Source: an uncultured Candidatus Saccharibacteria bacterium
GTDB taxonomy: Bacteria; Patescibacteriota; Saccharimonadia; Saccharimonadales; 2-12-FULL-41-12
Length of the DNA: 34,023 nt
NCBI GenBank assembly: GCA_964643605.1
Contig: CAZXTF010000001.1
Coordinates: 1 to 34,023, forward strand
Direction of reading: 5' to 3'
Below the pieces are notes generated by a model that did not search any database, was not told the DNA's origin, and saw only the letters and a list, made by a program, of their open reading frames with translations. Position 1 is the first letter of the stretch. Each line of letters opens with the position of its first letter. The position numbers and the translations under genes are program-made. Below, piece by piece: positions 5,082-34,023 of this stretch.

Positions 5082-6322
5082 TATATCTTCTCCTTATTTA
5101 TATACGATTGTAATGCCCTTGGAATATGCACATCACCAGACGAATCTTGATGGTTCTCAATTAAAGCAATTGCGATGCGGCTAAATGCCATGGCCGTACC
5201 GTTAAGCGTATGAACAAGCTCTGGCTTGCCCTCTTCGTTGCGATAGCGAATCTTCAAACGCCGAGCTTGATAGTCAGTTACGTTTGAACAGCTCATAAGT
5301 TCTCGATATATTCCCTCGACTGGACTCCAGTATTCTATGTCGAACTTCTTGTAGGCTGGTGCGCCCAAGTCACCTGCAGCAATGCGGACTAACTGATACG
5401 GGATCTCGAGAGCTTCGCATAATTCTTCTTCGATCTTCAGCAGCATTTCGTGCCATTTTGGACTTTCCTCAGGTTTGCAGAATACGTACATTTCAACTTT
5501 GTTAAATTGATGTACTCGATACAGCCCCTTGCTATGCTTGCCATATGCACCCGCTTCTTTGCGATATGCCGGACTCAAGCCGACATACAACAGCGGCAAG
5601 TCTTTTGTCTCTAAGATCTCTCCTGCATGATAGCCCGTAATTGGAATTTCGGCAGTAGCAATTAAGCTCAGGTCTTCTCCTTCAACAGTATAGATTTGGT
5701 CTTCCTCACCCTTTGGTGAAAATCCAGTTCCATTGGCTGTCTTCTCGTTTACCAGATGCGGAACAGTAATCGGCGTAAAGCCATGTTTCGTAGCAATACG
5801 TATTGCCAAGTTAATACAAGCTAGCTCTAGCTCAACCAGCGGACCTTTGGTGTAATAAAATTTTGCGCCAGCTACTTTTGCGCCCCGCCCAAAATCTAGG
5901 TAGCCCTTTTCTTCTCCCCACGTTAGATGATCTTTTACGTCTTTTTTTTCTGCAGTGCCAACCTGCTTGACTGGCGTATTATTCTCCTCGCCACCAAGTG
6001 GTGTATCGTCAGGAAAAATGTTTGGAACTTTCTCGAGTTCTTGCTGATAGCTCGTAATTACTTCCTGCAAGGCCGCCTCGACGGTTTCGAGATCTTCACG
6101 AAGTTTGCGCCCTTTTTCTATAGCTTCTTCAGATGGCTTTTGCCCTTTGTTTTGAACAGTGAGTTCGTTTCTTTTCAAACGAAGTTCGTCTGCCTGCTGG
6201 AGCAGGCTCCTTCTTGACTCGTCTTGCTCTAAAAGTTTTCTGACATCAACAACAACGCCCTTCTGCTTGGCTTTTTCTTCAACAAGCTCTGAGTTCTCAC
6301 GGATAAACTGAATATCAATCAT
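5081..6322 (-). CDS. serS: seryl-tRNA synthetase
   Basis: 413 aa. It has the N-terminal coiled-coil tRNA arm and class-II motifs ('YRKEAGAYGKHSKGLYRVHQFNKVEMY', 'LNGTAMAFSRIAIALIEN'). Confidence 0.95.
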   Translation of the reverse strand: MIDIQFIRENSELVEEKAKQKGVVVDVRKLLEQDESRRSLLQQADELRLKRNELTVQNKGQKPSEEAIEKGRKLREDLETVEAALQEVITSYQQELEKVPNIFPDDTPLGGEENNTPVKQVGTAEKKDVKDHLTWGEEKGYLDFGRGAKVAGAKFYYTKGPLVELELACINLAIRIATKHGFTPITVPHLVNEKTANGTGFSPKGEEDQIYTVEGEDLSLIATAEIPITGYHAGEILETKDLPLLYVGLSPAYRKEAGAYGKHSKGLYRVHQFNKVEMYVFCKPEESPKWHEMLLKIEEELCEALEIPYQLVRIAAGDLGAPAYKKFDIEYWSPVEGIYRELMSCSNVTDYQARRLKIRYRNEEGKPELVHTLNGTAMAFSRIAIALIENHQDSSGDVHIPRALQSYINKEKI

Positions 6323-7115: not shown

Positions 7116-7967
7116 CTATTGTACCAGCTCAGCCTTAGGATACGAGCCCAGCACCTGCAGATCAGCTGATCTACGTCCCATTTCTTCAACAGCCTGTGCC
7201 ACTGGATCTTCCTGTATGTGCCCTTCTATCTCTATATACATCGAGTGGCCACCCTCTCTAATTTCACGAGAGTGGATCTCATTCATAGATATATCTCGAT
7301 CAGCAAGTGGGCCAAGCATAGAGCGAAGCCCACCAGGCTTATCTTCTGGCTGACAGAGAATTGATGTTTTGTCGTTGCCAGTAGGCTGAGTCTCGTGCCG
7401 TGACAGAACGATGAATCGTGTGTGATTGTCTTCATGATCGTGCATATTATCAAGTACAACTCTCAGTGGAGTTGACTTTGCTACTTTGCGTGATGCAAGT
7501 ATTGCAGCGTCGGTACGTCTCAAAACCTTATCAATTGCTGCTGTGTTGCTCGATGCAAGAGTGAGATCTGCATCTGGCAGGTTATCTCCTATGGTCTGTC
7601 GGCACTGCGCGATTGTCTGATCATGACCGTACACCGTCTTGATATCTTCAATCAGCACTCCCTTTGGAGCTAACAGTGTATGTTTAATGGCCAATAGTTC
7701 TTCGCCAACGATACTAAGCTCAGTCTCTGTAAGTGCTAATTCTGCTGGCCTTACCAAACCTCGGGTTGTAGAGTTCTTAAGAGGTATCACTGCATAGTCG
7801 GCGCCTCTATTCTCTACCAGCCCCAACGCTGCCGAGATACTTTGCACTGGATTAAGTTCAACATGTGTTCCAAATCGCTGGTATACTGCCTCTTCCGAAT
7901 ACGTGCCTCTTGGTCCCAAGTAGCTTACTGCCGGTCCTCCTGGATTGATTTCTGGTGATTTATACAT
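7116..7967 (-). CDS. pheA: prephenate dehydratase (PDT + ACT domains)
   Basis: 'YLGPRGTYSEEA' at the N-terminus, 'ADYAVIPLKNS', the 'NHTRFIVLS' TRF motif, an ACT region 'DKTSILCQPEDKPGGLRSMLGPLADRDISMNEIHSRE' and a C-terminal 'LGSYP'. A GAGAGGAAAG Shine-Dalgarno lies upstream. Confidence 0.8.
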   Translation of the reverse strand: MYKSPEINPGGPAVSYLGPRGTYSEEAVYQRFGTHVELNPVQSISAALGLVENRGADYAVIPLKNSTTRGLVRPAELALTETELSIVGEELLAIKHTLLAPKGVLIEDIKTVYGHDQTIAQCRQTIGDNLPDADLTLASSNTAAIDKVLRRTDAAILASRKVAKSTPLRVVLDNMHDHEDNHTRFIVLSRHETQPTGNDKTSILCQPEDKPGGLRSMLGPLADRDISMNEIHSREIREGGHSMYIEIEGHIQEDPVAQAVEEMGRRSADLQVLGSYPKAELVQ

Positions 7968-8127: not shown

Positions 8128-8724
8128 CTATAACACAGAGGAAGAATTATTACAATTCGCTGGTTCTAAGCCTATTGTCTGGCCCATAACCCCTGCGACT
8201 CGATCAAGCCTGGCTAACGTTCGCTCATCCTTGAAAAAATCAATATTACCGGCGTCCAGCAATGCAACACTGCAATGAGGAGTATAGCCAGACATATTGG
8301 GTCGCAACGGATAACCTTGATCCCTATACATCTGCATAATAGTCTGGTGCTCGTCGTGTAAATACTGACTCTCGAGCTCAAACGCTAGTTTTATTTTCTG
8401 CCGACCGCCATATACTCCTAGCTTGCCGAGCATAACCTCTACGCTGGCAGCCCCTTCTCTATTCTGCTTTAATACATTTTTGGTCGTGGGGCCCTTATGT
8501 ATAGCTTCGGGGGTAAGTTGAGAGAAGCCGATTACCGTAACCCCGATTGTTTCTGGAGTAAAAAGTCTTCCTGCTCCTAAAATCTCTGGTTCGAGTTTTT
8601 CGTTAACTTCAGCAAATAGCTCATGAGATGATGGCGCAACACGCCGTCTTATAGCCTGCACACCTCGTGATTGTGCAATTTCTCCCACCCGTCTTTTTGG
8701 TTTTTGGGGCCTCCGGGTTGCCAT
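8128..8724 (-). CDS. hypothetical protein with basic N-terminus (possibly a degenerate 2H-phosphoesterase-like fold)
   Basis: 198 aa with the N-terminus 'MATRRPQKPKRRVGE..RRR'. 'GYTPHCSVALL' resembles the second H-x-S/T-x motif of LigT-type 2H enzymes, but the expected first motif reads 'IGVTVIGF' and has no His. The family call is weak. Confidence 0.35.
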   Translation of the reverse strand: MATRRPQKPKRRVGEIAQSRGVQAIRRRVAPSSHELFAEVNEKLEPEILGAGRLFTPETIGVTVIGFSQLTPEAIHKGPTTKNVLKQNREGAASVEVMLGKLGVYGGRQKIKLAFELESQYLHDEHQTIMQMYRDQGYPLRPNMSGYTPHCSVALLDAGNIDFFKDERTLARLDRVAGVMGQTIGLEPANCNNSSSVL

Positions 8725-8760: not shown

Positions 8761-9450
8761 CTAGAGCAGCTTGCTAGCTGCGACAACAGCGGCAGTTTCG
8801 GCCCGCAAGACGTGATTACTAATCGACATATGAAGAAAGTTGTTTGCTTTAAATAGTTCTTTTTCTGCCTCGCTCCAGCCACCTTCTGGGCCAATCAACA
8901 ATGCATATCTCTTTGCATCATCAAGTGTTATCTCTGGTTCTTCTGTCTGCTCGCACACAATAAACTCGACATGATCTCTGTATTGCTCTAGGGCTTTTTC
9001 TAGGTGCATGGGCTCTCGCACTGTAGGGATATCCGACCGCCCACATTGCTCACTAGCCTCGATAATAATCTTGTGCGCCCGATCTATATTGAAGTTTGTA
9101 CGTACAGACCGCTCACTCAAAATTGGCACAAAGTTAGATACTCCAAGTTCGGTGCATTTTTGCAAAATATGATCGTTGTTATCTTTTTTGAGCAAGCTCC
9201 ACAGCAGATAGACGTGTCTTCTGGGTAATACTCGCTCCATATCTGTTACTAGCTGTAAGTGCGCTTCGGCCTTACTAATGTCAGCAATTTTGTATAGTCT
9301 ATCTTTATCTTGTCCATCAAATAAGATAAGTTGTTGACCAACCTTAAAGCGCAACACCTTATTCCATTGCCACAATAATGCAGCATCGTGTACCCAAAAA
9401 TCGTGCGTAAGGTCTAGTGTGTCAGACACATAAAAACGATGTATCCGCAC
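8761..9450 (-). CDS. rsmE: 16S rRNA (uracil1498-N3)-methyltransferase RsmE
   Basis: 'MRIHRFYV' at the N-terminus, with the SPOUT knot motifs 'LLIGPEGGWSEAE' and 'LRAETAAV'. 229 aa. Confidence 0.85.
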   Translation of the reverse strand: MRIHRFYVSDTLDLTHDFWVHDAALLWQWNKVLRFKVGQQLILFDGQDKDRLYKIADISKAEAHLQLVTDMERVLPRRHVYLLWSLLKKDNNDHILQKCTELGVSNFVPILSERSVRTNFNIDRAHKIIIEASEQCGRSDIPTVREPMHLEKALEQYRDHVEFIVCEQTEEPEITLDDAKRYALLIGPEGGWSEAEKELFKANNFLHMSISNHVLRAETAAVVAASKLL

Positions 9451-9462
9451 CCTGCGTGTTCC

Positions 9463-10248
9463 CTACTTATATAACGCAGCAATAGCGATTAAGCCAAAGG
9501 CAAGCACAGTCGCAAAGTTAATCGCTAGATGATTCCGCTCAATAAACAAGTACTCTTTCCAGCCTTTTCGACCGGATAGGTAGTAGTATTGGTTGAAACC
9601 GTATAGGACAAAACTGATGAGTAATGTAGCTGCTAGTGCATATACTGCCCAAGTAAATCGTTCCATGCCATATACAGCGGTGCCAAAGAAGCTTCCTGCC
9701 AATGGGAACCAGGCACCAATACCAGCAAAAACCGCTACCACAAAAGGAAGCCACTTTTTCTTCTCAGCTCCATCGTTTTCTCGTTCTGAAATCCAGCACA
9801 AAAGCGACGAAACAAGCACCAAGCCAGCAACAACTTTTAAGACCATGAGGTCGGTAATACCAGCTAGTAAGTTCACCACCCCGAATAGATATGCAGCTGT
9901 TATACCGACAAAAATCCACTTATAGCCAGATACTCTGGCTTTTAGGGTAGTCTCATAATTTGCACGTAGTTTGGTAAATAGTAAGACTGCCAAAATTGCG
10001 CTTAGCGCAAAAATACCCGCCAGAATATAGCGAATCTCAACACTAAATAATTCTTTATATGCTGGTACTAAAACTACCTTTTCCCCTGGGTTCAGCAGAT
10101 CACGAGCCATATAGCCAAGCCACAAACTGACATTGGTTGTGGCGAGTAATGTCGCTGATGCAACTGCCAAAACTGCAGACGTCACTGCAGTAGCAATATT
10201 TATTTTTTTAATCTGTACTTGTAATACTTTTTTACTTGGTGCTTTCAT
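9463..10248 (-). CDS. heliorhodopsin-like 7-TM membrane protein lacking the retinal-binding Lys
   Basis: Seven hydrophobic helices plus a long TM1-TM2 loop. Three blocks match remembered heliorhodopsin sequences: 'GITDLMVL', 'WLPFVVAVFAGIGAW' and 'KGWKEYLFIER'. TM7 ('HLAINFATVLAFGLIAIAALY') contains no Lys. A GAGG Shine-Dalgarno lies 5 nt before the ATG. Confidence 0.6.
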   Translation of the reverse strand: MKAPSKKVLQVQIKKINIATAVTSAVLAVASATLLATTNVSLWLGYMARDLLNPGEKVVLVPAYKELFSVEIRYILAGIFALSAILAVLLFTKLRANYETTLKARVSGYKWIFVGITAAYLFGVVNLLAGITDLMVLKVVAGLVLVSSLLCWISERENDGAEKKKWLPFVVAVFAGIGAWFPLAGSFFGTAVYGMERFTWAVYALAATLLISFVLYGFNQYYYLSGRKGWKEYLFIERNHLAINFATVLAFGLIAIAALYK

Positions 10249-10278
10249 AATGCCTCAACTATATCACATTTACCCTTC

Positions 10279-26466: not shown

Positions 26467-27234
26467 TTATGTTAGTCTCGTGTTAACTTCTTTTGCCAGA
26501 TTCTTATAGGCTCGTGCACCCCTGCTCCACTTGTCATGTTCTGATATCGGCTTGCCAAAGCTAGGTGCCTCTGCCAAACGAACATTCCGTGGAATCACTG
26601 TCTCAAACAATTTGTCGCCAAAGTGCTTGCCTACTTCATTATATACTTGTTCAGACAAACTTGTACGTTTGTCATACATAGTCACTACTACTCCAAGTAG
26701 TTCCAGATTTGGGTTCAAGCCACCACGGACTGTTTGTATGACTTGCAATAATTGGCTTAGGCCTTCTAGCGCATAGTACTCAGCCTGAACAGGAATTAAT
26801 ACATAGTGAGATGCCACTAGTGCATTAATAGTTAGTAAGCCTAGGGCTGGTGGACAATCTATCAATATATAGTCATAGCCACTAGCAGACCCGAGAGCAG
26901 CTGCTAACACTTCTTCTCTTTTCTCTTCTGTAGCCAGCTCAACTTCGATACTTGCCAATCGAGCATCTGTAGGTAATAAATGTATATTTTTAAAATCTGT
27001 TTGGTGTAGTACTTTGTCCAAGCTTACTTGTGAAAGTAATATGTCGCACAATGTTTGGCTTATGGCCGTCTTATCGAAACCTAAGCCACTCGTAGCATTA
27101 CCTTGTGGATCAGCATCTACCACCAAGACCGTCTTGCCCTGTTTTGCTAGATATGCAGCCAAATTAATGGTAGTGGTGGTTTTGCCCACACCACCCTTCT
27201 GGTTCAGCACAGCAATTATTTTTGTTTGTCTCAT
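26467..27234 (-). CDS. parA: chromosome partitioning ATPase ParA/Soj
   Basis: A deviant Walker A 'NQKGGVGKTTT', 'VLVVDADPQGNAT' and 'YDYILIDCPP'. I start at the ATG at 27234 (MRQTKIIAV), which has a GAGGGA Shine-Dalgarno 4 nt upstream. Confidence 0.93.
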   Translation of the reverse strand: MRQTKIIAVLNQKGGVGKTTTTINLAAYLAKQGKTVLVVDADPQGNATSGLGFDKTAISQTLCDILLSQVSLDKVLHQTDFKNIHLLPTDARLASIEVELATEEKREEVLAAALGSASGYDYILIDCPPALGLLTINALVASHYVLIPVQAEYYALEGLSQLLQVIQTVRGGLNPNLELLGVVVTMYDKRTSLSEQVYNEVGKHFGDKLFETVIPRNVRLAEAPSFGKPISEHDKWSRGARAYKNLAKEVNTRLT

Positions 27235-27297
27235 AGCTTCCCTCTGTTTATAGATTACCATGTACGTGTATCCTCAGTAAATTCAAGAAGCATAAGA

Positions 27298-27306
27298 TGG
27301 TATGAT
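27298..27306 (+). promoter_or_regulatory. candidate extended -10 promoter (TGgTATGAT)
   Basis: A TG dinucleotide at 27298-27299 and the hexamer TATGAT at 27301-27306 end 6 nt before the ATG at 27313. No Shine-Dalgarno is present. Confidence 0.4.
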
Positions 27307-27312
27307 AATCAT

Positions 27313-28095
27313 ATGTCAAAAATTGATAATAGACTTAGATCCTTTACGAGGAAGCTGAATTATACTGGCTTTCTGAAAAGAGTTGGTATTGTCTTCCTGA
27401 TTTTTAGTGTGGCGTACCTCCCATATTTTTTCATCCAGCAACATCAAGCTAAAAATCAGAAAGCACCCCTGTCAAAATCTAGTATTCGTGTAGACTTAAA
27501 CCAGCACCTCATCGCCCTGCAATCCCTACGAGATATTGACACAAAAGACATATCTTCAACAGTAAGAATCGAGGGGCTCAGAAGCTCAATCGATACAACA
27601 CGAGAAAATTATAGAAAAAATCTAGCTGCCTACAAGAAAAAAGATGGCGCTATCGTACCACCTAATGCTGAAGAGTTTTTTGCCCAAGAAGAACTAATTT
27701 TAAAGAAATACGACCAAAATTACAAAGAACTTAAGAAAGTAATTCAATACTCACCAGACAAAGACTTAAACTCACTAAACCTAGCGAGCGACTTGGCAGA
27801 AGTAGCTACCCGTATCGACATCGCAACGCAAGCCCTAACTAATATCAAGAACCAAAGCAGTGCTATATCTGATCAGACAAAACAGTACATCGACCGCTCA
27901 ATTGCCTGTTTGAACGATATCCAAAAACAAGCCAGAGATAATCAAGCAGATACGCTTGATGAGCACATCAGAAGCTGCGACACAACCTATACCAGCGCCC
28001 GCTTGAGTGCAATCACCGATGTTACTCAACCACTCAGAACCACTAATAGCGAGGATCTGTTTGGTCAAATCCGTGACTTAATAAATAAATTTTAG
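27313..28095 (+). CDS. hypothetical membrane-anchored helical protein
   Basis: Starting at the ATG at 27313 (MSKIDNRL) gives about 260 aa. It has one TM helix ('VGIVFLIFSVAYLPYFFI') followed by a Lys/Gln/Asp-rich, probably alpha-helical, extracytoplasmic domain. No family is recognised. Confidence 0.5.
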   Translation: MSKIDNRLRSFTRKLNYTGFLKRVGIVFLIFSVAYLPYFFIQQHQAKNQKAPLSKSSIRVDLNQHLIALQSLRDIDTKDISSTVRIEGLRSSIDTTRENYRKNLAAYKKKDGAIVPPNAEEFFAQEELILKKYDQNYKELKKVIQYSPDKDLNSLNLASDLAEVATRIDIATQALTNIKNQSSAISDQTKQYIDRSIACLNDIQKQARDNQADTLDEHIRSCDTTYTSARLSAITDVTQPLRTTNSEDLFGQIRDLINKF

Positions 28096-28781
28096 TCTAT
28101 TGTAGTTTTTATCTGGCCATCAACAAAACTAGGCCAAGAGTCTGACTCACCACCCTCTTTTATGACCTTATACCGATTCCCTGGTGCTGGTTCGGCAAGA
28201 TCATACAAAACAACCTGCCATTCTTTTCCACTTTTGCCTGTGTACTGTGCGTAGACTATTTTGTTATCCTGTATCTTAGGACGTAGAGAGGTGCTGTCGT
28301 GGCTAATCTGATAAATCTCGGTTCCATCAAAATAAAATACTTGTTGCAGTCCTCGATTTACACCTTCCCACACTATTTTATTCCCCCAAATCGACGGAGA
28401 TAGATTAGTCCCCGTTTGCGTTATCTGCAAGATGGTTTTATCTAGCAAATCATACAAGACTATCTGAGGAAAACCCTCTACAGTCTCTGTCCAAGTTACA
28501 TACCGGCCACTTATTGCAGGTTGCGTGTGATTCCTTTGATTATTTGTAATAAAGACTTTTACATCATTATAAAGGTAGTAGACTTGCTGATAGCCACTAA
28601 CCGACTCAACCCCGATATTCAACGCATGGCCATTCAAATAACCCTCTAGTTCTTGTCGGGTTGGTTCTGGATTTGCCGATATACGACTATTAATAATTAC
28701 GAATACTATCAATACAATAGCTATTGGTAACAGCCATATTTTTGCAAGATTTAGTCCTTTTCTCAGTGTTAATCTACCCAA
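28092..28781 (-). CDS. membrane-anchored beta-propeller-repeat protein
   Basis: An N-terminal TM helix ('IWLLPIAIVLIVFVII') is followed by repeated blades: 'ISGRYVTWTE...QIVLYDL', 'IWGNKIVWEG...QVFYFDG' and 'IQDNKIVYAQ...QVVLYDL'. These resemble the G-x-x-IVW...YDL surface beta-propeller repeats of archaeal and bacterial envelope proteins. It uses a TTG start with an AAAGGA Shine-Dalgarno 5 nt upstream, inside the end of the preceding gene. Confidence 0.55.
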   Translation of the reverse strand: MGRLTLRKGLNLAKIWLLPIAIVLIVFVIINSRISANPEPTRQELEGYLNGHALNIGVESVSGYQQVYYLYNDVKVFITNNQRNHTQPAISGRYVTWTETVEGFPQIVLYDLLDKTILQITQTGTNLSPSIWGNKIVWEGVNRGLQQVFYFDGTEIYQISHDSTSLRPKIQDNKIVYAQYTGKSGKEWQVVLYDLAEPAPGNRYKVIKEGGESDSWPSFVDGQIKTTID

Positions 28782-30571
28782 GAGAATCCTTTCTCAGATC
28801 CGTCCTGGAAGAAATTACCATGCCGCAGTTGATTCTCTGTATGTGGCTTTGTTACCAATGTTGGACATTGCGCATAGTCACTCATAACACCGTCGTCACT
28901 TTCGACAAGCCTAAAACTGTACTGGGTGGCAGGTGCTGCTCCATTATGCTCTATATGAAAATCATACTCGATGGTTTGCCCCACAGCTGCACTATTAGGA
29001 TTGGTAGCTGTCGGATTAGACTTTGAGTAGAGCTCTCGAACACTCGAAGATAAGACACTCGTCGACAGCGTGACATTATTGGTAATACCAGAGGTAGCAA
29101 AACGCCAGACACTACCACTACCCCCTGCTCCTACATCCGTCCATGTACCTGCTGTGCAGCTACTATCAGTACCGGCCTTGTATTGCAGCTTAAACGCCAC
29201 ACTGTGCGCTAGCAGAGGTTGGTTACCCATCAATATCTTGACTCTTAGTCGTAGCTTATTGCCCGCACCGGGCGGATTGTATCTCGTCGGCAACGAAGGA
29301 ATCATGTTGTTTATAGGTACATCCAGCGGAGACCACGGGTCAGTAACAGCTTCGAGATTATTATCCTCATACCATCTATACGAGTTTAGCGACATAGTAA
29401 CCCTCTCTGCAATAACTACATTTACGTATTGCGGCAAGAAATAGTCATTATTACCGGTATAAAGAGGGTCGGAATTTCCGGCATAAAATGTCGCTGTCAA
29501 ATTATGGGTGTGGTTAGAAGCAGCTCCGCCAGTACCACTACCAGAGCTCGAGTTGCTACCACCAGAAGCAGCACCAGTTACACCGGTAGCGGTATGGGTA
29601 TGGTAAGCCTGCCCTCCTCCAGCGTTATAGGCGGCACCTGGCCTTAAGAATTTTCTATAGTAAACCCCCCCAGGCTCAGATCTTGATGTCCATAAATCTC
29701 CTGGGGCACCCTCGAACATTGCTGTTAAGCCCACTGTTGATGTCTGAGTATTTGCATTTGCTTTTGCAAGAATAGGCTGCACATATGGAGGTATAGCAGA
29801 ATCACTCGTACTAGTGGTTGCGCCTGGAGCAGTATGTGTATGGTTCGCTGATTTTGCCTGTGGGGATCCGCTACAGAAAAATATCCCCCCACAAATATTT
29901 GTGCTCGTGGCATTACCGCTTACACTACCCGACCAAGTTGCAGAATGCGTGTGTGTATCCGATCCAGCATTAGTGCCAGCTGTGGTATGTACTTTAAGCA
30001 CCTTGTTGTCGTACGCAGAGAGCCTAGTCCATCCAGACACAGGCATACCAGGGCTGTCGTCGAACATCACAATAGCTCCAGCAGGGATAGTAGTCGGTAT
30101 ACCGCTGTTATACTGAATGACTCTTATTGTTCTGGTTGCCGGCTCATTACTAGCAGCAGATATACTGGAGACACTTGGTAACGTAGGGTGCGAATGATTG
30201 TCTGTAGAGATTGCAGTTAGTGTGAGACCGGTTCCCGTTGTACCGTTTGTGCTTGTTATTGCCACAGATTGATTTGTATGAGAGTGTGTGGTGCCACCCC
30301 CAAGACCTCCAAAGCTAGCTGCGGCCTCACCTCTAATCATCCTGCCAGGTACTGCAGAAGAAACCTCACTCCATCCAGAGGGTACCGATATGGGGTTGCC
30401 CAGGTAATCTGTGCCATCCCAAAAAAGAATCATATCTCCGGTTGCAGCTTTTGTATGATGAGGTTTTATCAGTACAGAGAATAAGCTACCAAAGACTGCA
30501 GAAAAGGCAAAACAAATGACCACCCCAAGAATTGAGAGCCCAAAGAGCTTTTGTTTAACCGCCGTTAACAT
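28769..30571 (-). CDS. secreted/anchored protein with three tandem phage-tail-collar-like modules (six HxH motifs) and a C-terminal ~210-aa domain
   Basis: An N-terminal hydrophobic signal or anchor ('LFGLSILGVVICFAFSAVFGSLFSVLI') leads into three modules of about 110 aa (aa ~44-155, ~163-270, ~280-390). Each module has G-x-I-x-(M/L)-F, P-x-GW, a basic strand (GRMIRG / NKVLKV / RKFLRPG), GG-x-H-(S/T)-H, N-H-(S/T)-H, and (P)PY/QY-V. This order is the one I remember for Collar/MdpB-type proteins. A separate domain then begins at 'YRWYEDNN'. Confidence 0.55.
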   Translation of the reverse strand: MLTAVKQKLFGLSILGVVICFAFSAVFGSLFSVLIKPHHTKAATGDMILFWDGTDYLGNPISVPSGWSEVSSAVPGRMIRGEAAASFGGLGGGTTHSHTNQSVAITSTNGTTGTGLTLTAISTDNHSHPTLPSVSSISAASNEPATRTIRVIQYNSGIPTTIPAGAIVMFDDSPGMPVSGWTRLSAYDNKVLKVHTTAGTNAGSDTHTHSATWSGSVSGNATSTNICGGIFFCSGSPQAKSANHTHTAPGATTSTSDSAIPPYVQPILAKANANTQTSTVGLTAMFEGAPGDLWTSRSEPGGVYYRKFLRPGAAYNAGGGQAYHTHTATGVTGAASGGSNSSSGSGTGGAASNHTHNLTATFYAGNSDPLYTGNNDYFLPQYVNVVIAERVTMSLNSYRWYEDNNLEAVTDPWSPLDVPINNMIPSLPTRYNPPGAGNKLRLRVKILMGNQPLLAHSVAFKLQYKAGTDSSCTAGTWTDVGAGGSGSVWRFATSGITNNVTLSTSVLSSSVRELYSKSNPTATNPNSAAVGQTIEYDFHIEHNGAAPATQYSFRLVESDDGVMSDYAQCPTLVTKPHTENQLRHGNFFQDGSEKGFSWVD

Positions 30572-30612: not shown

Positions 30613-33600
30613 CTAGAACTGGCTCTTGTAATTGATGAATATCTCGCCAGCTCGGGCATAGTTACCATTGCTAGCTACTGTGAGCGTAATCCTAAATACT
30701 AGCTCATCTCCGGCGTTGATAGAACAACTTGTCGTTGGGTTAGAAGTTACAAGTGCCCATGAGCCAGAACTTCCCAGAGAGTCGTTGTCACATACAGTAC
30801 CGCTACCACTCTTGTATACTCTAAGTTGCACAGCGTCAGAACCACCTGTCTTCCATCCGTAGAACTGCACCGGTGTAGCAGCAAAGCTTGCAAAGTCGCT
30901 TGGGACTTTCCATTTAACATATATGTCGTAGTCGTTCGTCGCATTAGCAGTCCATGAGTAGAAGTTATGATCCTCGTTAGCTCCACAGCTGGTACCTATA
31001 TTAAGTAGACTGCTCCCGCTACAAAAATCAGAGGTCATCGTACCAACGTTATTTGTACCGTCACCCGTTAGTACTGCCCCCGCATACTCTGGACTAAGCG
31101 TTACACTTATATCGTTCTGTGCTGTTCCACGGAATCGCAACTTGCCACCCACCTGGTCATTAAAGCTAATGCCATTCGTGCTATCGCCTACTCGTAATGT
31201 AGTTGTTACGTCTACCGAAGTTACTTCCAATGCTCTACCCGTCAAAGAGCCTGTTGCCCCACCGATGGTAATACGCATATTAGTGGTATCTGCATTTAAT
31301 AAACCGGTGCTAGATGAGTTCTGTATGCTAAATGCTGTAGTAGAATTGATAGCTGTCTGCACTAAGAAGCTATCATCTGTTTGTAGAGTATTAGCCGCAC
31401 CTCGGTAAAGGTTAGTGTCTGTGCCAAACCAGATACCACCTGTGTTAGCTGTGGTGTTGGTGCCTATGGTTAGTGCCCCATTAGCTGGTACTGCGGCTGG
31501 GCCTATGGCTACTCGTTGGTTGGTGGTGTCGGCTACGAAGAGGTTTTGGGCACCAGCATTTTGGATACGGAAGGCTGTGGTGGAGTTAGTGGAGTTTTGG
31601 CTTAGAATGTTGCCTGTCTGACCTACGGTAAAAACAGTTGTTCCATTATTTCTGGCACTCAATATATCATCATTGCCATTGACTTGATTTAGTACTAGAG
31701 TTTTTCGGCCAGCACCAACGTTGGAGTTTATGGTTACGAATCCCCCGCCAACTGCAATACTAGCATTATTGCCTCCTGCACCAAAACCAACCGTCCCTTG
31801 GAAGGAATTGGCATCGAAGAACGAAGTTCCGTTATAAAACTGTAACTGCAAGCCGTTAACAGAAGAAGTAGAAGCCCTAAGAACAGGAGCTACTATAGTG
31901 CTTGTGTGGAGTTGCATATTGGTGGTGTCGGCAGTGAATAAACTAGTGCCACTTGAATTTTGTATCTGGAAGGCGGTGGTAGAGTTAGTTTGATTGTTAA
32001 ATGTAGTAGCTCCACCATCGGCTATAGTAAACACAGCCGTAGCGTTATCCCTAGCCTGTAAAATGTTACCGGTAGAGGTTGAGTTACTTATTATGAGTGT
32101 ATCTGCGCTACCGCTAGTTCGGTTGGTTATAGTAGTAGCGCCAGTAATCGCCGTCGTACCAGCTACAGACGAACCTATGTTCACATTATTAGTAGAGCTG
32201 GCTGTCGAGTTATTACCTATGTTAATAGTTTGGGTGACAGCACCTGTGGTGTTGCCAATTTGGATGGTGTTGGCTGCTCCACCACCGCCAAGATTGAGAG
32301 CAGTACTAGCTTGGATGTCTACGTTGCTTACGCTGGTAGTGTTTCCAATAGCTATTTGGCCTGTACTAATACCGCTGTTTCCTATAGCAATACCATTGCT
32401 TCCGTTCCCACCGATAAATAGGGCGCCTGTACTGTCTATCTCAGTAGTTCCTTGTCCTGTCAGTTTTGAGCTATTGAAGGCTATCTGGAATCTGTTAACA
32501 TTGTTAGTTTCTAGATTAAGGACGTTATTATCGTTAGTACCTAGGATTGCTGCCCCGCCAAAGCTATTACCACCGTTACGGAAGAAACCGGTAGCAGAAG
32601 TATCGTCTACAGTTAGTGCACCACTAGAGTTTATTAGGCCAGAGCCAGTCAGGTCGGTCAGGGCATCGCCGTTTACAGTAAGGGTTTTGCCAGCAGCAAG
32701 GGTTAGGCCATTGTTTATAGTGGTGGTACCGGTACTAGCTCCAAGCGATATAGTAGTAGCTGCACCAAAGGCGTTTATTGTGGTAGCATCTGTATTTAAC
32801 AAATTAAAGGTGGTAGATGTAGTTGTTAAGTCCCCACCGTTTACAGCTAAGGTACCTCCTATTACTCCGTTACCAGTGATATTAAAGTCGGCTGTTTGGG
32901 GGCTAGTGCCGTTTTGAATAAATCCGCTTGGGTCAGCCGCTGTGCTGCCAATAATTCGCCACAAGCTGGCGCCAGAGTCATATATAAGAGTTACAGAACT
33001 GCCCGCTGCCAAGGTCATGTCCGACCCTGTGCCAGTAACAATCCTATTGGCAGCCGAGGAGCTGCCAGAATTGTTGGCAAGTGTAGCGTCTTGGCTAGCC
33101 GCATTCATCATAGTTAGTATCTTGCCGTCCCTACCGCCAGCGATACCAGTGATAGTCTGAGCAGATGCACCAGTTAGGCGAATCAGAGACACATCGCCAA
33201 AGTTAACGTTATCACTACTGCCAGTCGTAGAAAAGTCTGTCCCTCGCTTAAACGCAGTCGAGCCAGTTACGTCTAGCTGTCCGCCAATACCTATGTTTCC
33301 GTTGAATTGCGAAGAATCCAAGACAGTTAAGCCACCTTGTACAGACAGATTGCCACCTATGCTGCCGCTGCTTTGTACACTCAGGGTACTCGTCTCAACT
33401 CCACCCGTCTCTAATTGCTGTACATAGGCGCCCCCGAGATCGAAGATTTGGAGGGTGTTGGAGCTTTGGTTTGTAACATACGCATAGCGGCCTTGGACGG
33501 AGACGAAGTTAGGCTGAGTGTCTGTAGCTACGGAACCGACGCTAGTGGGGCTGGCTGGATTAGAGATGTTGATAATTTGGAGAGTATTAGAGCCGTAGTT

Positions 33601-34023
33601 AGCCACATAAGCATATCTACCCTGTGTATACACAGAGCGAGGATCATTACCAGCTGCAACAGAGCCAACACTGGCCGGTGAAGCGGGGTTACTGACATCG
33701 AAGATTTGCAGGGTGCCACTACCATCACCACGCACTACATATGCATACCTGCCTTGGACCTGGACAGAGCGTGGCTGGCTTCCTGTAACAATACTGCCCG
33801 TTAGTGTAGGACTTGCGGGGTTACTGACATCGAAGATTTGTAATGAGTCTGTGCCGCCTATATGTATTATATACATGTAGCGGCCCTGTACTTGGACATA
33901 GTTTGGAGCCGCACCTGTAGCTACGCTGCCCGTTAGTGTAGGACTTGCGGGGTTACTGACATCGAAGATTTGCAGGGTGGCAGAGTTATATATCGTGACA
34001 TACGCATATCTGCCTTGGATGTA
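30613..34023 (-). CDS. giant surface protein: N-terminal LVIVD beta-propeller repeats + long Gly/Thr/Ser/Asn-rich fibre-like region + conserved-looking C-terminal domain; 5' end outside window
   Basis: The reading frame stays open upstream of the track's ATG (33876) to the window edge, translating as '...YIQGRYAYVTIYNSATLQIFDVSNPASPTLTGSVATGAAPNYVQVQGRY-MYII...'. At least 4.5 units of 43-44 aa follow the pattern 'LQIFDVSNPASP..GS....G..P..V.VQGRYAYV' (LVIVD-repeat signature). Then come about 750 aa of low-complexity beta-rich sequence, including repeated 'ARDNATAVFT...NSTTAF(Q/R/S)IQN..G..LF.ADTTN' modules. The C-terminal domain of about 170 aa begins 'LSPEYAGAVLTGDG'. Confidence 0.7.
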   Translation of the reverse strand, partial: YIQGRYAYVTIYNSATLQIFDVSNPASPTLTGSVATGAAPNYVQVQGRYMYIIHIGGTDSLQIFDVSNPASPTLTGSIVTGSQPRSVQVQGRYAYVVRGDGSGTLQIFDVSNPASPASVGSVAAGNDPRSVYTQGRYAYVANYGSNTLQIINISNPASPTSVGSVATDTQPNFVSVQGRYAYVTNQSSNTLQIFDLGGAYVQQLETGGVETSTLSVQSSGSIGGNLSVQGGLTVLDSSQFNGNIGIGGQLDVTGSTAFKRGTDFSTTGSSDNVNFGDVSLIRLTGASAQTITGIAGGRDGKILTMMNAASQDATLANNSGSSSAANRIVTGTGSDMTLAAGSSVTLIYDSGASLWRIIGSTAADPSGFIQNGTSPQTADFNITGNGVIGGTLAVNGGDLTTTSTTFNLLNTDATTINAFGAATTISLGASTGTTTINNGLTLAAGKTLTVNGDALTDLTGSGLINSSGALTVDDTSATGFFRNGGNSFGGAAILGTNDNNVLNLETNNVNRFQIAFNSSKLTGQGTTEIDSTGALFIGGNGSNGIAIGNSGISTGQIAIGNTTSVSNVDIQASTALNLGGGGAANTIQIGNTTGAVTQTINIGNNSTASSTNNVNIGSSVAGTTAITGATTITNRTSGSADTLIISNSTSTGNILQARDNATAVFTIADGGATTFNNQTNSTTAFQIQNSSGTSLFTADTTNMQLHTSTIVAPVLRASTSSVNGLQLQFYNGTSFFDANSFQGTVGFGAGGNNASIAVGGGFVTINSNVGAGRKTLVLNQVNGNDDILSARNNGTTVFTVGQTGNILSQNSTNSTTAFRIQNAGAQNLFVADTTNQRVAIGPAAVPANGALTIGTNTTANTGGIWFGTDTNLYRGAANTLQTDDSFLVQTAINSTTAFSIQNSSSTGLLNADTTNMRITIGGATGSLTGRALEVTSVDVTTTLRVGDSTNGISFNDQVGGKLRFRGTAQNDISVTLSPEYAGAVLTGDGTNNVGTMTSDFCSGSSLLNIGTSCGANEDHNFYSWTANATNDYDIYVKWKVPSDFASFAATPVQFYGWKTGGSDAVQLRVYKSGSGTVCDNDSLGSSGSWALVTSNPTTSCSINAGDELVFRITLTVASNGNYARAGEIFINYKSQF
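33430..34023 (-). repeat. in-frame tandem 129/132-bp repeats encoding LVIVD units
   Basis: Unit boundaries (first codon of 'LQIF', minus strand) fall at 33975, 33843, 33711, 33582 and 33453. There is an exact 47-nt identity between 33794-33840 and 33926-33972, and an exact 33-nt identity between 33683-33715 and 33947-33979. Confidence 0.85.

Follow-up and report, generated by a model that had tools for sequence, protein, structure and literature searches.

What does a heliorhodopsin (HeR) do once it has lost the lysine that binds retinal? This question is raised by a minus-strand open reading frame (ORF) at positions 9463-10248 of a 34,023-nucleotide stretch of DNA from an uncultured Candidatus Saccharibacteria bacterium; the whole stretch is called the window here. 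The physiological function of HeRs has been unclear since their discovery in 2018: apart from some viral members they pump no ions, and few partner interactions are known. An earlier note, made from the DNA letters, had described the gene as encoding an HeR-like protein without the Schiff-base lysine and without the counter-ion glutamate. Our analysis leads to the reading that the window protein is an HeR free of chromophore, maintained for a function that does not depend on retinal and is probably exerted through its cytoplasmic face, and we put the probability of this reading at roughly 0.55.

The window protein belongs to the heliorhodopsin family

The reading frame is intact and encodes 261 aa. 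The following features define the gene and the hallmark loop between transmembrane helices (TM) 1 and 2.

9463-10248, minus strand: coding sequence of the Lys-less heliorhodopsin homologue (261 aa), from the ORF, Pfam PF18761, AlphaFold2 (AF2) and Foldseek
10253-10256, minus strand: ribosome-binding site GAGG, 4 nt 5' of the ATG, read directly from the sequence
10036-10134, minus strand: long TM1-TM2 (AB) loop with a beta-hairpin, residues 39-71, from DSSP on the AF2 model; an HeR hallmark

The protein matched the Pfam Heliorhodopsin profile PF18761 with an E-value of 3.1e-26 and 92.6 bits (gathering score 26.7), residues 14-246 being aligned to profile positions 2-228 of 242. Against the NCBIfam equivalog NF038020, 'heliorhodopsin HeR', it scored 90.4 bits (E 1.3e-25), which is under the curated cutoff of 100, so the NCBI annotation rule would not assign the HeR name. 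A phmmer search of PDB sequences returned only heliorhodopsins, including TaHeR (6is6, E 9e-12) and 48C12 (6su3, E 4e-6), and all of these alignments ended at residue 247, one short of the expected lysine. No Pfam match to Bac_rhodopsin (PF01036) was obtained at E <= 1.

We then considered the fold. The AF2 model, based on a 132-sequence alignment, showed seven helices with a mean predicted local distance difference test score of 96.8 and a predicted template modelling score of 0.91, and the hairpin in the TM1-TM2 loop was formed by strands at residues 39-49 and 60-71. In a Foldseek comparison with the PDB, the ten best matches were all HeRs, with template modelling scores (TM-scores) of 0.81-0.88 (0.83/0.86 for 6is6 and 0.81-0.82 for 6su3), whereas type-1 rhodopsin structures reached only 0.5-0.6. 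Lysine and arginine residues numbered 3, 4, 3 and 3 in the N-terminus and the BC, DE and FG loops, against 0, 1 and 1 in the CD loop, the EF loop and the C-terminus. By the positive-inside rule, the inverted HeR topology with a cytoplasmic N-terminus is predicted. By sequence and fold, the window protein is a true heliorhodopsin-family member. The seven-helix ORF with its long first loop and the HeR-like identity proposed in the earlier note are thus borne out, and the motif matches that it had listed also appear in computed alignments.

The Schiff-base site has been lost

To place the key residues, the sequences of 48C12 (residues 9-256, native numbering) and TaHeR were recovered from the PDB alignments and aligned with 159 relatives by MAFFT. 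Four positions matter most.

9505-9507, minus strand: Val248, codon GTG, in the column of the Schiff-base lysine (48C12 K241), from computed alignments
9517-9519, minus strand: Asn244, codon AAC, in the column of 48C12 S237 (bacteriorhodopsin D212); Asp in all Lys-bearing sisters
9910-9912, minus strand: Phe113, codon TTT, in the column of the TM3 counter-ion glutamate (48C12 E107); F or L across the Saccharibacteria clade, Lys-bearing members included
9796-9798, minus strand: Cys151, in the column of 48C12 G145 (bacteriorhodopsin G122 by the helix-D offset, beside the beta-ionone ring); every Lys-less orthologue has Cys here and every Lys-bearing sister Gly

The TM7 motif of the window protein is NFATV, compared with SLVAK (SxxxK) in 48C12-type HeRs, and its TM3 motif is KWIF compared with RWVE. 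An alignment shift at V248 or F113 is excluded by flanking anchors, namely an R/K-W pair 2-3 residues before E107 and an E-R-N triplet 11 residues before K241. TM7 (residues 233-258) contains no lysine at all. Both substitutions agree with the computed alignment, and the two codons given for them in the earlier note are correct. V248 is not a sequencing error, because two base changes or more separate Lys from Val and six independent assemblies show the loss. Beyond these sites, the Schiff-base-cavity residues His23, His80 and Asn101 are replaced by S24, A87 and S107, and Tyr108, Asn138, Pro172 and Pro40 of canonical HeRs are also replaced.

The window protein lacks the residues on which a protonated retinal Schiff base depends, and we infer that it carries no covalent chromophore. 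Since it does not have the chromophore features that define a rhodopsin, the protein should be named a heliorhodopsin homologue lacking the retinal lysine, and not a rhodopsin.

The sole lysine within a helix core is Lys138, in the middle of TM4 (9835-9837, minus strand). It is invariant in a 36-sequence alignment of the clade and present in 84% of Lys-bearing representatives, and a buried or interface lysine of this kind is unusual. Its column corresponds to 48C12 L132, described in a preprint as a dimer-interface residue (10.1101/2025.11.27.691015).

The lysine was lost once within a clade that had probably already changed its counter-ion

We next compared the closest homologues. The Lys-less group comprises the window gene, L005/P0002, L015/P0003, L006/P0004, L010 and L013, which are 76-100% identical to the window protein and carry V, I or L at the lysine column and Asn four residues before it (-4). 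The Lys-bearing sisters (P0005/L001, P0006/L017, L012, P0007/L014 and P0008/L016), at 53-60% identity to the window protein, have the lysine together with Asp at -4 (DxxxK). The orthologue survey that had been proposed thus gave six Lys-less and five Lys-bearing sequences. A genome scan gave three loci and a scan of metagenome contigs one more, which limited how finely the Lys-less clade could be sampled; a second homologue search with the 36-sequence alignment returned the same nine proteins and, in addition, only P0063. Among the source runs, SRR22387974 (Lys-bearing) and SRR22388166 and SRR22387867 (Lys-less) have neighbouring numbers, which may hint at a single project.

In a neighbour-joining (NJ) tree, the six Lys-less sequences were monophyletic, nested within the DxxxK sequences and sister to P0005/P0006/L012, indicating a single loss of the lysine on the stem of the window subclade. 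The TM3 glutamate column holds Phe or Leu in both groups alike, and His23, His80, Asn101, Tyr108, Asn138 and Pro172 are replaced in both. Among the key residues of Kovalev et al. (PMC7049168), only Asp to Asn244 and Lys to V/I/L248 separate the two groups; 26 further fixed differences exist, including G145 to Cys151. The greA-(lysK)-HeR-rsmE locus is common to Lys-less and Lys-bearing forms, all of them in metagenome-assembled genomes (MAGs) of Saccharibacteria. These comparisons show that the two forms are positional orthologues.

The earlier note had set the missing lysine and the missing TM3 glutamate side by side. Both absences are real, but the glutamate loss is older and shared with the DxxxK clade: the column was already non-acidic in the Lys-bearing parent clade, so the change that accompanied the loss of the lysine is Asp to Asn244. 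The window protein probably arose in two steps. In the first, an ancestral Saccharibacteria-type HeR clade would have lost the TM3 glutamate and both Schiff-base-cavity histidines and gained an aspartate four residues before the lysine, most likely as a new counter-ion. In the second, on the stem of the window subclade, Asp would have changed to Asn244 and Lys to Val, Ile or Leu248, ending covalent retinal chemistry.

The Lys-less gene is under strong purifying selection

Each of the six Lys-less genes has an undamaged ORF of 261 aa. Within this clade, dN/dS by the Nei-Gojobori method (NG86) was 0.04-0.07 for pairs with dS from 0.47 to about 2.2, and rsmE in the same genomes gave 0.04. The ratio of HeR to RsmE amino-acid divergence was 0.87 (0.66-1.04) in the Lys-less clade; for the Lys-bearing sisters it was 1.49, and for comparisons across the two groups 1.36. 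There was no relaxation of constraint after the lysine was lost; if anything, constraint became tighter. The Lys-less state has persisted across a divergence that saturates synonymous sites.

The gene is held by purifying selection to the same degree as its housekeeping neighbour, which argues that the protein has a function without a retinal Schiff base, most likely one that operates without light. The evolutionary evidence that the apo-scaffold is functional is strong.

Lysine and counter-ion columns in the wider family

We examined the same columns across HeRs. When 1.84 billion representative proteins were searched with a profile, 772 relatives were obtained at E <= 0.001, 117 of them at E <= 1e-30. 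The alignment was made from the best 150 relatives, the locus-derived sequences and the two PDB references; the sequences were mostly 50%-identity cluster representatives, and 159 had a residue at all three key columns. The lysine column held Lys in 115, Arg in 11 and another residue in 33.

Lys-bearing (n=115): TM3 acid only 74; TM7 -4 acid only 31; both 3; neither 7
No Lys and no Arg (n=33): TM3 acid only 5; TM7 -4 acid only 0; both 0; neither 28

Among Lys-bearing sequences the two acids alternate almost exclusively, which suggests that the TM7 aspartate took over as counter-ion from the TM3 glutamate in the DxxxK group, the counter-ion having apparently moved from TM3 to TM7. The -4 aspartate of this group occupies the position of bacteriorhodopsin D212. 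The joint loss of the lysine and the acids in the Lys-less sequences is the pattern that would be expected if Schiff-base chemistry had been abandoned. Fitch parsimony on an NJ tree gave about 23 state changes at the lysine column, a rough number, and lysine loss appears to be recurrent in the HeR family.

The DxxxK group includes P0005-P0008, P0010-P0026, P0041, P0042, P0047, P0049, P0063 and others, with loci at L001 6001-6786, L014 6001-6795 and L018 5001-5954. Its TM7 motif resembles that of type-1 rhodopsins, and its TM3 glutamate column holds the non-acidic residues F, Y, L, A, V, G or M. The group makes up 31 of the 115 Lys-bearing sequences, and it does not seem to have been described previously.

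The 11 clusters with Arg at the Schiff-base column (P0033, P0069, P0076, P0079, P0086, P0094, P0100, P0103, P0114, P0125 and P0134) form a separate observation. Eight of them have the TM3 acid only and one more has both acids, and a salt bridge between the Arg and an acid could stand in for a protonated Schiff base with its counter-ion.

The cytoplasmic face is retained

When the window clade was collapsed to two sequences, 29 Lys-less representatives from many lineages remained. Conservation among them was 86% for R104, 100% for W105, 93% for E149, 90% for Y92, 93% for D127, 100% for G124, 100% for Y196 and 79% for E230 (48C12 numbering). Within this sample, the lysine column (Lys in 115 of 159) is less conserved than the cytoplasmic Arg-Glu-Glu cluster. 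The window protein keeps the following parts of this surface.

9916-9921, minus strand: Lys110-Trp111 (48C12 R104-W105), retained, in the cytoplasmic polar cluster where TM3 starts; the R/K and W columns rank with the best conserved in the family, Lys-less members included
9784-9786, minus strand: Glu155 (48C12 E149), partner of R104 at the cytoplasmic surface, retained; 93% E in the Lys-less representatives
9532-9570, minus strand: basic FG cytoplasmic loop and start of TM7, R227-N239, RKGWKEYLFIERN, including Glu237 (E230) and Tyr233 (Y226)

The polar cluster R104/W105/E149/Y226/E230/Y92/N16 is present as K110, W111, E155, Y233, E237, Y98 and N17, and the retained core as a whole consists of N17, Y98, K110, W111, D133, E155, W180, F213, Q220, Y233 and E237. 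In the FG loop and the start of TM7, K228-Y233 and I236-N239 are invariant in the clade. Other clade-invariant cytoplasmic parts are K6, K7, K15 and N17 in the N-terminus, Y98, K103, S107 and W111 in the BC loop and TM3 start, and R156/E157.

In AbHeR, the basic intracellular-loop residues K217, K220 and R226 are critical for binding glutamine synthetase (GS) (PMC9529153). The homologous loop of the window protein, with R227, K228 and K231, is invariant in the clade. An invariant cytoplasmic face, together with this precedent, makes a partner-binding role the favoured one. By analogy with AbHeR, the window protein may act as a constitutive, membrane-anchored binding or regulatory partner of a cytoplasmic protein, locked in one state, and the surface that it uses would be the same one with which other HeRs bind GS.

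A broader reading is more tentative, and we would hold it at a little under even odds. According to it, the HeR scaffold has a core function that needs no retinal and lies in the Arg-Glu-Glu cluster and the basic loops; Lys-less HeRs (HeR-noK) arose many times; the window protein is a long-maintained example; its parent clade is an undescribed DxxxK type whose counter-ion shifted from TM3 to TM7; and surveys have missed both.

Weighing of alternative explanations

One alternative is that the protein still works as a photoreceptor or pigment protein with a light-driven function, holding retinal non-covalently or a carotenoid at the HeR fenestration. The pocket wall speaks for it, since W111, W180, F213, Y216 and Q220 are invariant in the Lys-less clade and a hydrophobic ligand could still bind; moreover, a carotenoid-binding site is present in 91% of HeRs according to a preprint (10.1101/2025.11.27.691015), and TaHeR takes up exogenous retinal rapidly through its opening, as cited in PMC9296517. 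Against it, the lysine and the presumptive counter-ion Asp were lost together, both acidic positions are missing in 28 of the 33 Lys-less family sequences, and G145 beside the beta-ionone ring has become Cys in every Lys-less orthologue. The absorption of retinal is confined to the near-UV when there is no protonated Schiff base, which is a further point against a pigment, and our literature search found no natural Lys-less microbial rhodopsin with a functional non-covalent chromophore. We consider this explanation improbable. Lipid scrambling is in the same position: retinal-independent transfer of phospholipids at the dimer interface would be useful to a Saccharibacterium that has to spread host-derived lipids between leaflets, and scrambling that needs neither light nor retinal, via polar grooves between protomers, is known for bovine opsin, bacteriorhodopsin and actinorhodopsin (10.1101/2025.08.17.670764, PMC10730872). 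The invariant K138 of TM4 in the dimer-interface column of L132, an Asn126 specific to the Lys-less forms and the retained dimer contact D133 would suit such an activity. No heliorhodopsin, however, had been tested for scrambling in the literature consulted on it. As described in 10.1101/2025.08.17.670764, scrambling does not depend on particular residues and experiences little selective pressure, a poor fit to a dN/dS of about 0.05 and invariant cytoplasmic loops, and it leaves unexplained that no feature is conserved better than the cytoplasmic Arg-Glu-Glu cluster. Scrambling is therefore also judged an outside chance.

Two further explanations fare much worse. Loss of the catalytic lysine is the classic first sign of a dead opsin, and together with the NF038020 score of 90.4 below the cutoff of 100 it could suggest that an ordinary heliorhodopsin is decaying into a relic or pseudogene, or has been distorted by an error of assembly or sequencing. 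This is refuted by six assemblies with intact 261-aa ORFs and V, I or L at the column, by dN/dS values equal to that of rsmE at dS up to about 2, by a rate relative to RsmE below that of the Lys-bearing sisters, by a very confident AF2 model and by the two or more substitutions that separate Lys from Val. Alternatively, K110 in TM3 or K138 in TM4, both inside predicted helices, might serve as the Schiff-base lysine and keep retinal covalently bound; the active-site lysine has reportedly been relocated by experiment in animal rhodopsin. Both lysines are shared with P0005 and P0006, which are Lys-bearing sisters, and so cannot be compensatory, and by homology both fall outside the pocket; K110 lies in the R104 column, whose side chain points toward the cytoplasm in 48C12 (PMC7049168), K138 lies in the dimer-interface column (10.1101/2025.11.27.691015), and there is no acidic counter-ion at either canonical position. 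We reject this explanation as very unlikely, with hardly more to be said for it than for the relic.

Several points weigh against a chromophore-free, partner-binding HeR as well. The absence of a chromophore is a prediction from the sequence. Variability at the former retinal-pocket positions does not significantly exceed that at other TM positions (11/21 versus 53/147 variable sites, Fisher p = 0.16), and the invariant pocket wall described above could mean that a hydrophobic ligand still binds. Half of the search profile consisted of Lys-less sequences, which may have inflated their fraction in the family, and the alternation of the TM3 and TM7 -4 acids in Lys-bearing sequences (Fisher p = 5e-18) was computed without phylogenetic correction, DxxxK having arisen few times. 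The only conserved neighbour of the gene is rsmE, and in streamlined genomes synteny does not have to reflect a functional link. A literature search on the run, project and assembly accessions gave no match from which a light or dark habitat of the source samples could be read.

Host and genomic neighbourhood

All matches in genome collections were MAGs of uncultured Candidatus Saccharibacteria, a group reported to lack blh and retinal synthesis, the latter as the earlier note had expected, and which may obtain retinal from hosts (PMC9296517). The gene content of the window is of a housekeeping kind (ribosomal proteins S2 and L31, EF-Ts, RRF, RF1, PrmC, SecA, the Ser-, Pro- and Lys-tRNA synthetases, GreA, ParAB, signal peptidase, HtrA and LytR), and no second rhodopsin and no carotenoid or retinal genes were found within the 34 kb. 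The two genes that flank the HeR gene are as follows, and the order lysK - HeR - rsmE had been read correctly.

8761-9450, minus strand: rsmE (16S rRNA methyltransferase), 12 nt downstream of the HeR gene, Pfam PF04452/PF20260
10279-11811, minus strand: lysK, class I lysyl-tRNA synthetase (LysRS), ending 30 nt upstream of the HeR gene, Pfam PF01921, 342 bits

No terminator-like sites were found between lysK, the HeR gene and rsmE, and the scan gave 5 promoter-like sites against 9.5 in shuffles, fewer than by chance and hence uninformative. The order greA ... HeR - rsmE - (a protein of about 200 aa) ... PDDEXK - serS - S30AE recurs in every relative examined, with a gap of 7-13 nt between HeR and rsmE. 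The gene directly upstream varies among lysK, msrA, a 2'-5' RNA ligase-like gene and greA; lysK is missing from this position in L001, and L005, L014 and L018 have other genes instead. In P0063, the HeR gene again lies directly upstream of rsmE in the same neighbourhood, the HeR being 26% and the RsmE 56% identical to those of the window. Since adjacency to rsmE is kept even for an HeR of 26% identity, the gene is an old, vertically inherited resident of this Saccharibacteria locus.

The neighbourhood shows some variation of its own. The window and its close relatives have a class I LysRS (PF01921) upstream of HeR; the distant relative L018 has a class II LysRS-like gene fused to DUF2000 (478-2454) in the greA-HeR interval, three genes upstream of HeR, and L001 has no synthetase at all between greA and HeR (5421-6000). 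msrA (PF01625) stands immediately upstream of HeR in one Lys-less relative (L005 5494-5979) and one Lys-bearing relative (L016 68-550). Chiriac et al. 2022 suggested that heliorhodopsins from the Candidate Phyla Radiation (CPR) are linked to protection from oxidative stress. The protein of about 200 aa after rsmE has no Pfam family (window 8128-8724, minus strand; L001 7528-8136; L006 7517-8125; L014 5376-5990 and 7512-8102). It is present in L001-L004, L006-L009 and L014 and absent at that position in L005 and L018, and its sole match was a weak one to the 2'-5' RNA ligase superfamily (E 0.021); in L014, a clear 2_5_RNA_ligase2 protein lies directly upstream of HeR.

Farther from the gene, the window holds a stand-alone prephenate dehydratase (PDT; 7116-7967, minus strand). 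The same place is taken in L006 (8291-10256) by a chorismate mutase-PDT fusion with an aminotransferase and in L014 (8298-10153) by PDT with DAHP synthase, so that remnants of the aromatic-amino-acid pathway differ among close Saccharibacteria. A block of large ORFs lies at 27226-28095 (plus strand), 28092-28781, 28769-30571 and 30613-33876 (all minus strand). Three of them have no Pfam match (289, 229 and 600 aa), and the fourth encodes 1087 aa with LVIVD repeats and may be a cell-surface protein of this episymbiont.

Significance and comparison with known systems

The window protein amounts to a natural apo-protein experiment: whatever its activity, it must be a retinal-independent property of the scaffold, and the Lys-bearing positional orthologues at 53-60% identity provide built-in controls. 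The apparent relocation of the counter-ion in DxxxK proteins is relevant to spectral tuning and to the evolution of rhodopsins. In CPR biology, the small core gene set of Saccharibacteria gains a conserved membrane protein of unassigned role.

Heliorhodopsins are common in Saccharimonadia, with 80 occurrences, among which SLVAK-type motifs are the commonest (PMC9166423), and Kovalev et al. distinguished ten HeR subfamilies and unsorted groups (PMC7049168). Large surveys kept only SxxxK or TM7-lysine sequences (PMC8612252, PMC9601134, PMC9166423), a filter by which both DxxxK and Lys-less forms would be excluded and which hid a considerable share of the family. Neither 'lysine' nor 'K241' appears in the main text of Kovalev et al. 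(PMC7049168), the TM7 motifs searched for did not appear in the text files of the Chiriac 2022 supplement, and a literature search of incomplete coverage turned up no description of bacterial or CPR heliorhodopsins of the Lys-less or DxxxK kind.

Compared with the canonical HeRs 48C12 and TaHeR, the window protein shares the fold, the AB beta-hairpin, the N-in topology, the cytoplasmic cluster and D127, W173, F206 and Q213, and it too is found in a monoderm-type host without retinal synthesis. It differs in having V248 for the lysine, F113 for the TM3 glutamate, N244 for Ser237 and S24/A87 for His23/His80. Closer still are the Saccharibacteria DxxxK HeRs (P0005-P0008, P0010, P0063; about 30 representative clusters), which have the same greA...HeR-rsmE locus and the same remodelled pocket, with F or L at the E107 column and neither His23 nor His80. 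These proteins keep Lys241 with Asp at -4, whereas the window protein has Val and Asn in addition to the 26 fixed differences.

Loss of the Schiff-base lysine with conservation of the ORF is also seen in type-1 opsins. For the haloarchaeal class (Becker 2016), betaproteobacterial Rh-noK and freshwater FArhodopsins, a regulatory or sensory role without retinal has been proposed (PMC10308929). Back-mutation of Rh-noK has been shown to restore retinal binding. They belong to another family with the opposite membrane orientation, and Rh-noK adjoins a functional proteorhodopsin, whereas the Saccharibacteria window has no second rhodopsin; the window protein is thus an analogue and not a member. Among HeR homologues, 23 betachloroviruses encode proteins with Asn at the lysine position, and no function is proposed for them (PMC12390592); the passages on them report neither a selection nor a counter-ion analysis. 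As described there, they are likewise naturally without the TM7 lysine but come from viruses of a eukaryotic alga, have Asn and not a hydrophobic residue, and are in some cases about 120 aa longer. The lysine of the window clade was lost on a branch inside Saccharibacteria with Lys-bearing sisters, so a common origin of the two losses is unlikely. The novelty claimed by the earlier note for a light-independent role of the scaffold has to be reduced accordingly, as the type-1 Rh-noK and the betachlorovirus Asn forms came before; the role itself is a probable one, suggested by purifying selection.

AbHeR offers the functional parallel. It binds retinal, up-regulates GS in the light and has its partner in the same operon, whereas the window gene has no GS neighbour and no lysine; yet the basic cytoplasmic FG loop, for which partner binding was demonstrated in AbHeR (PMC9529153), is both basic and invariant in the window clade.

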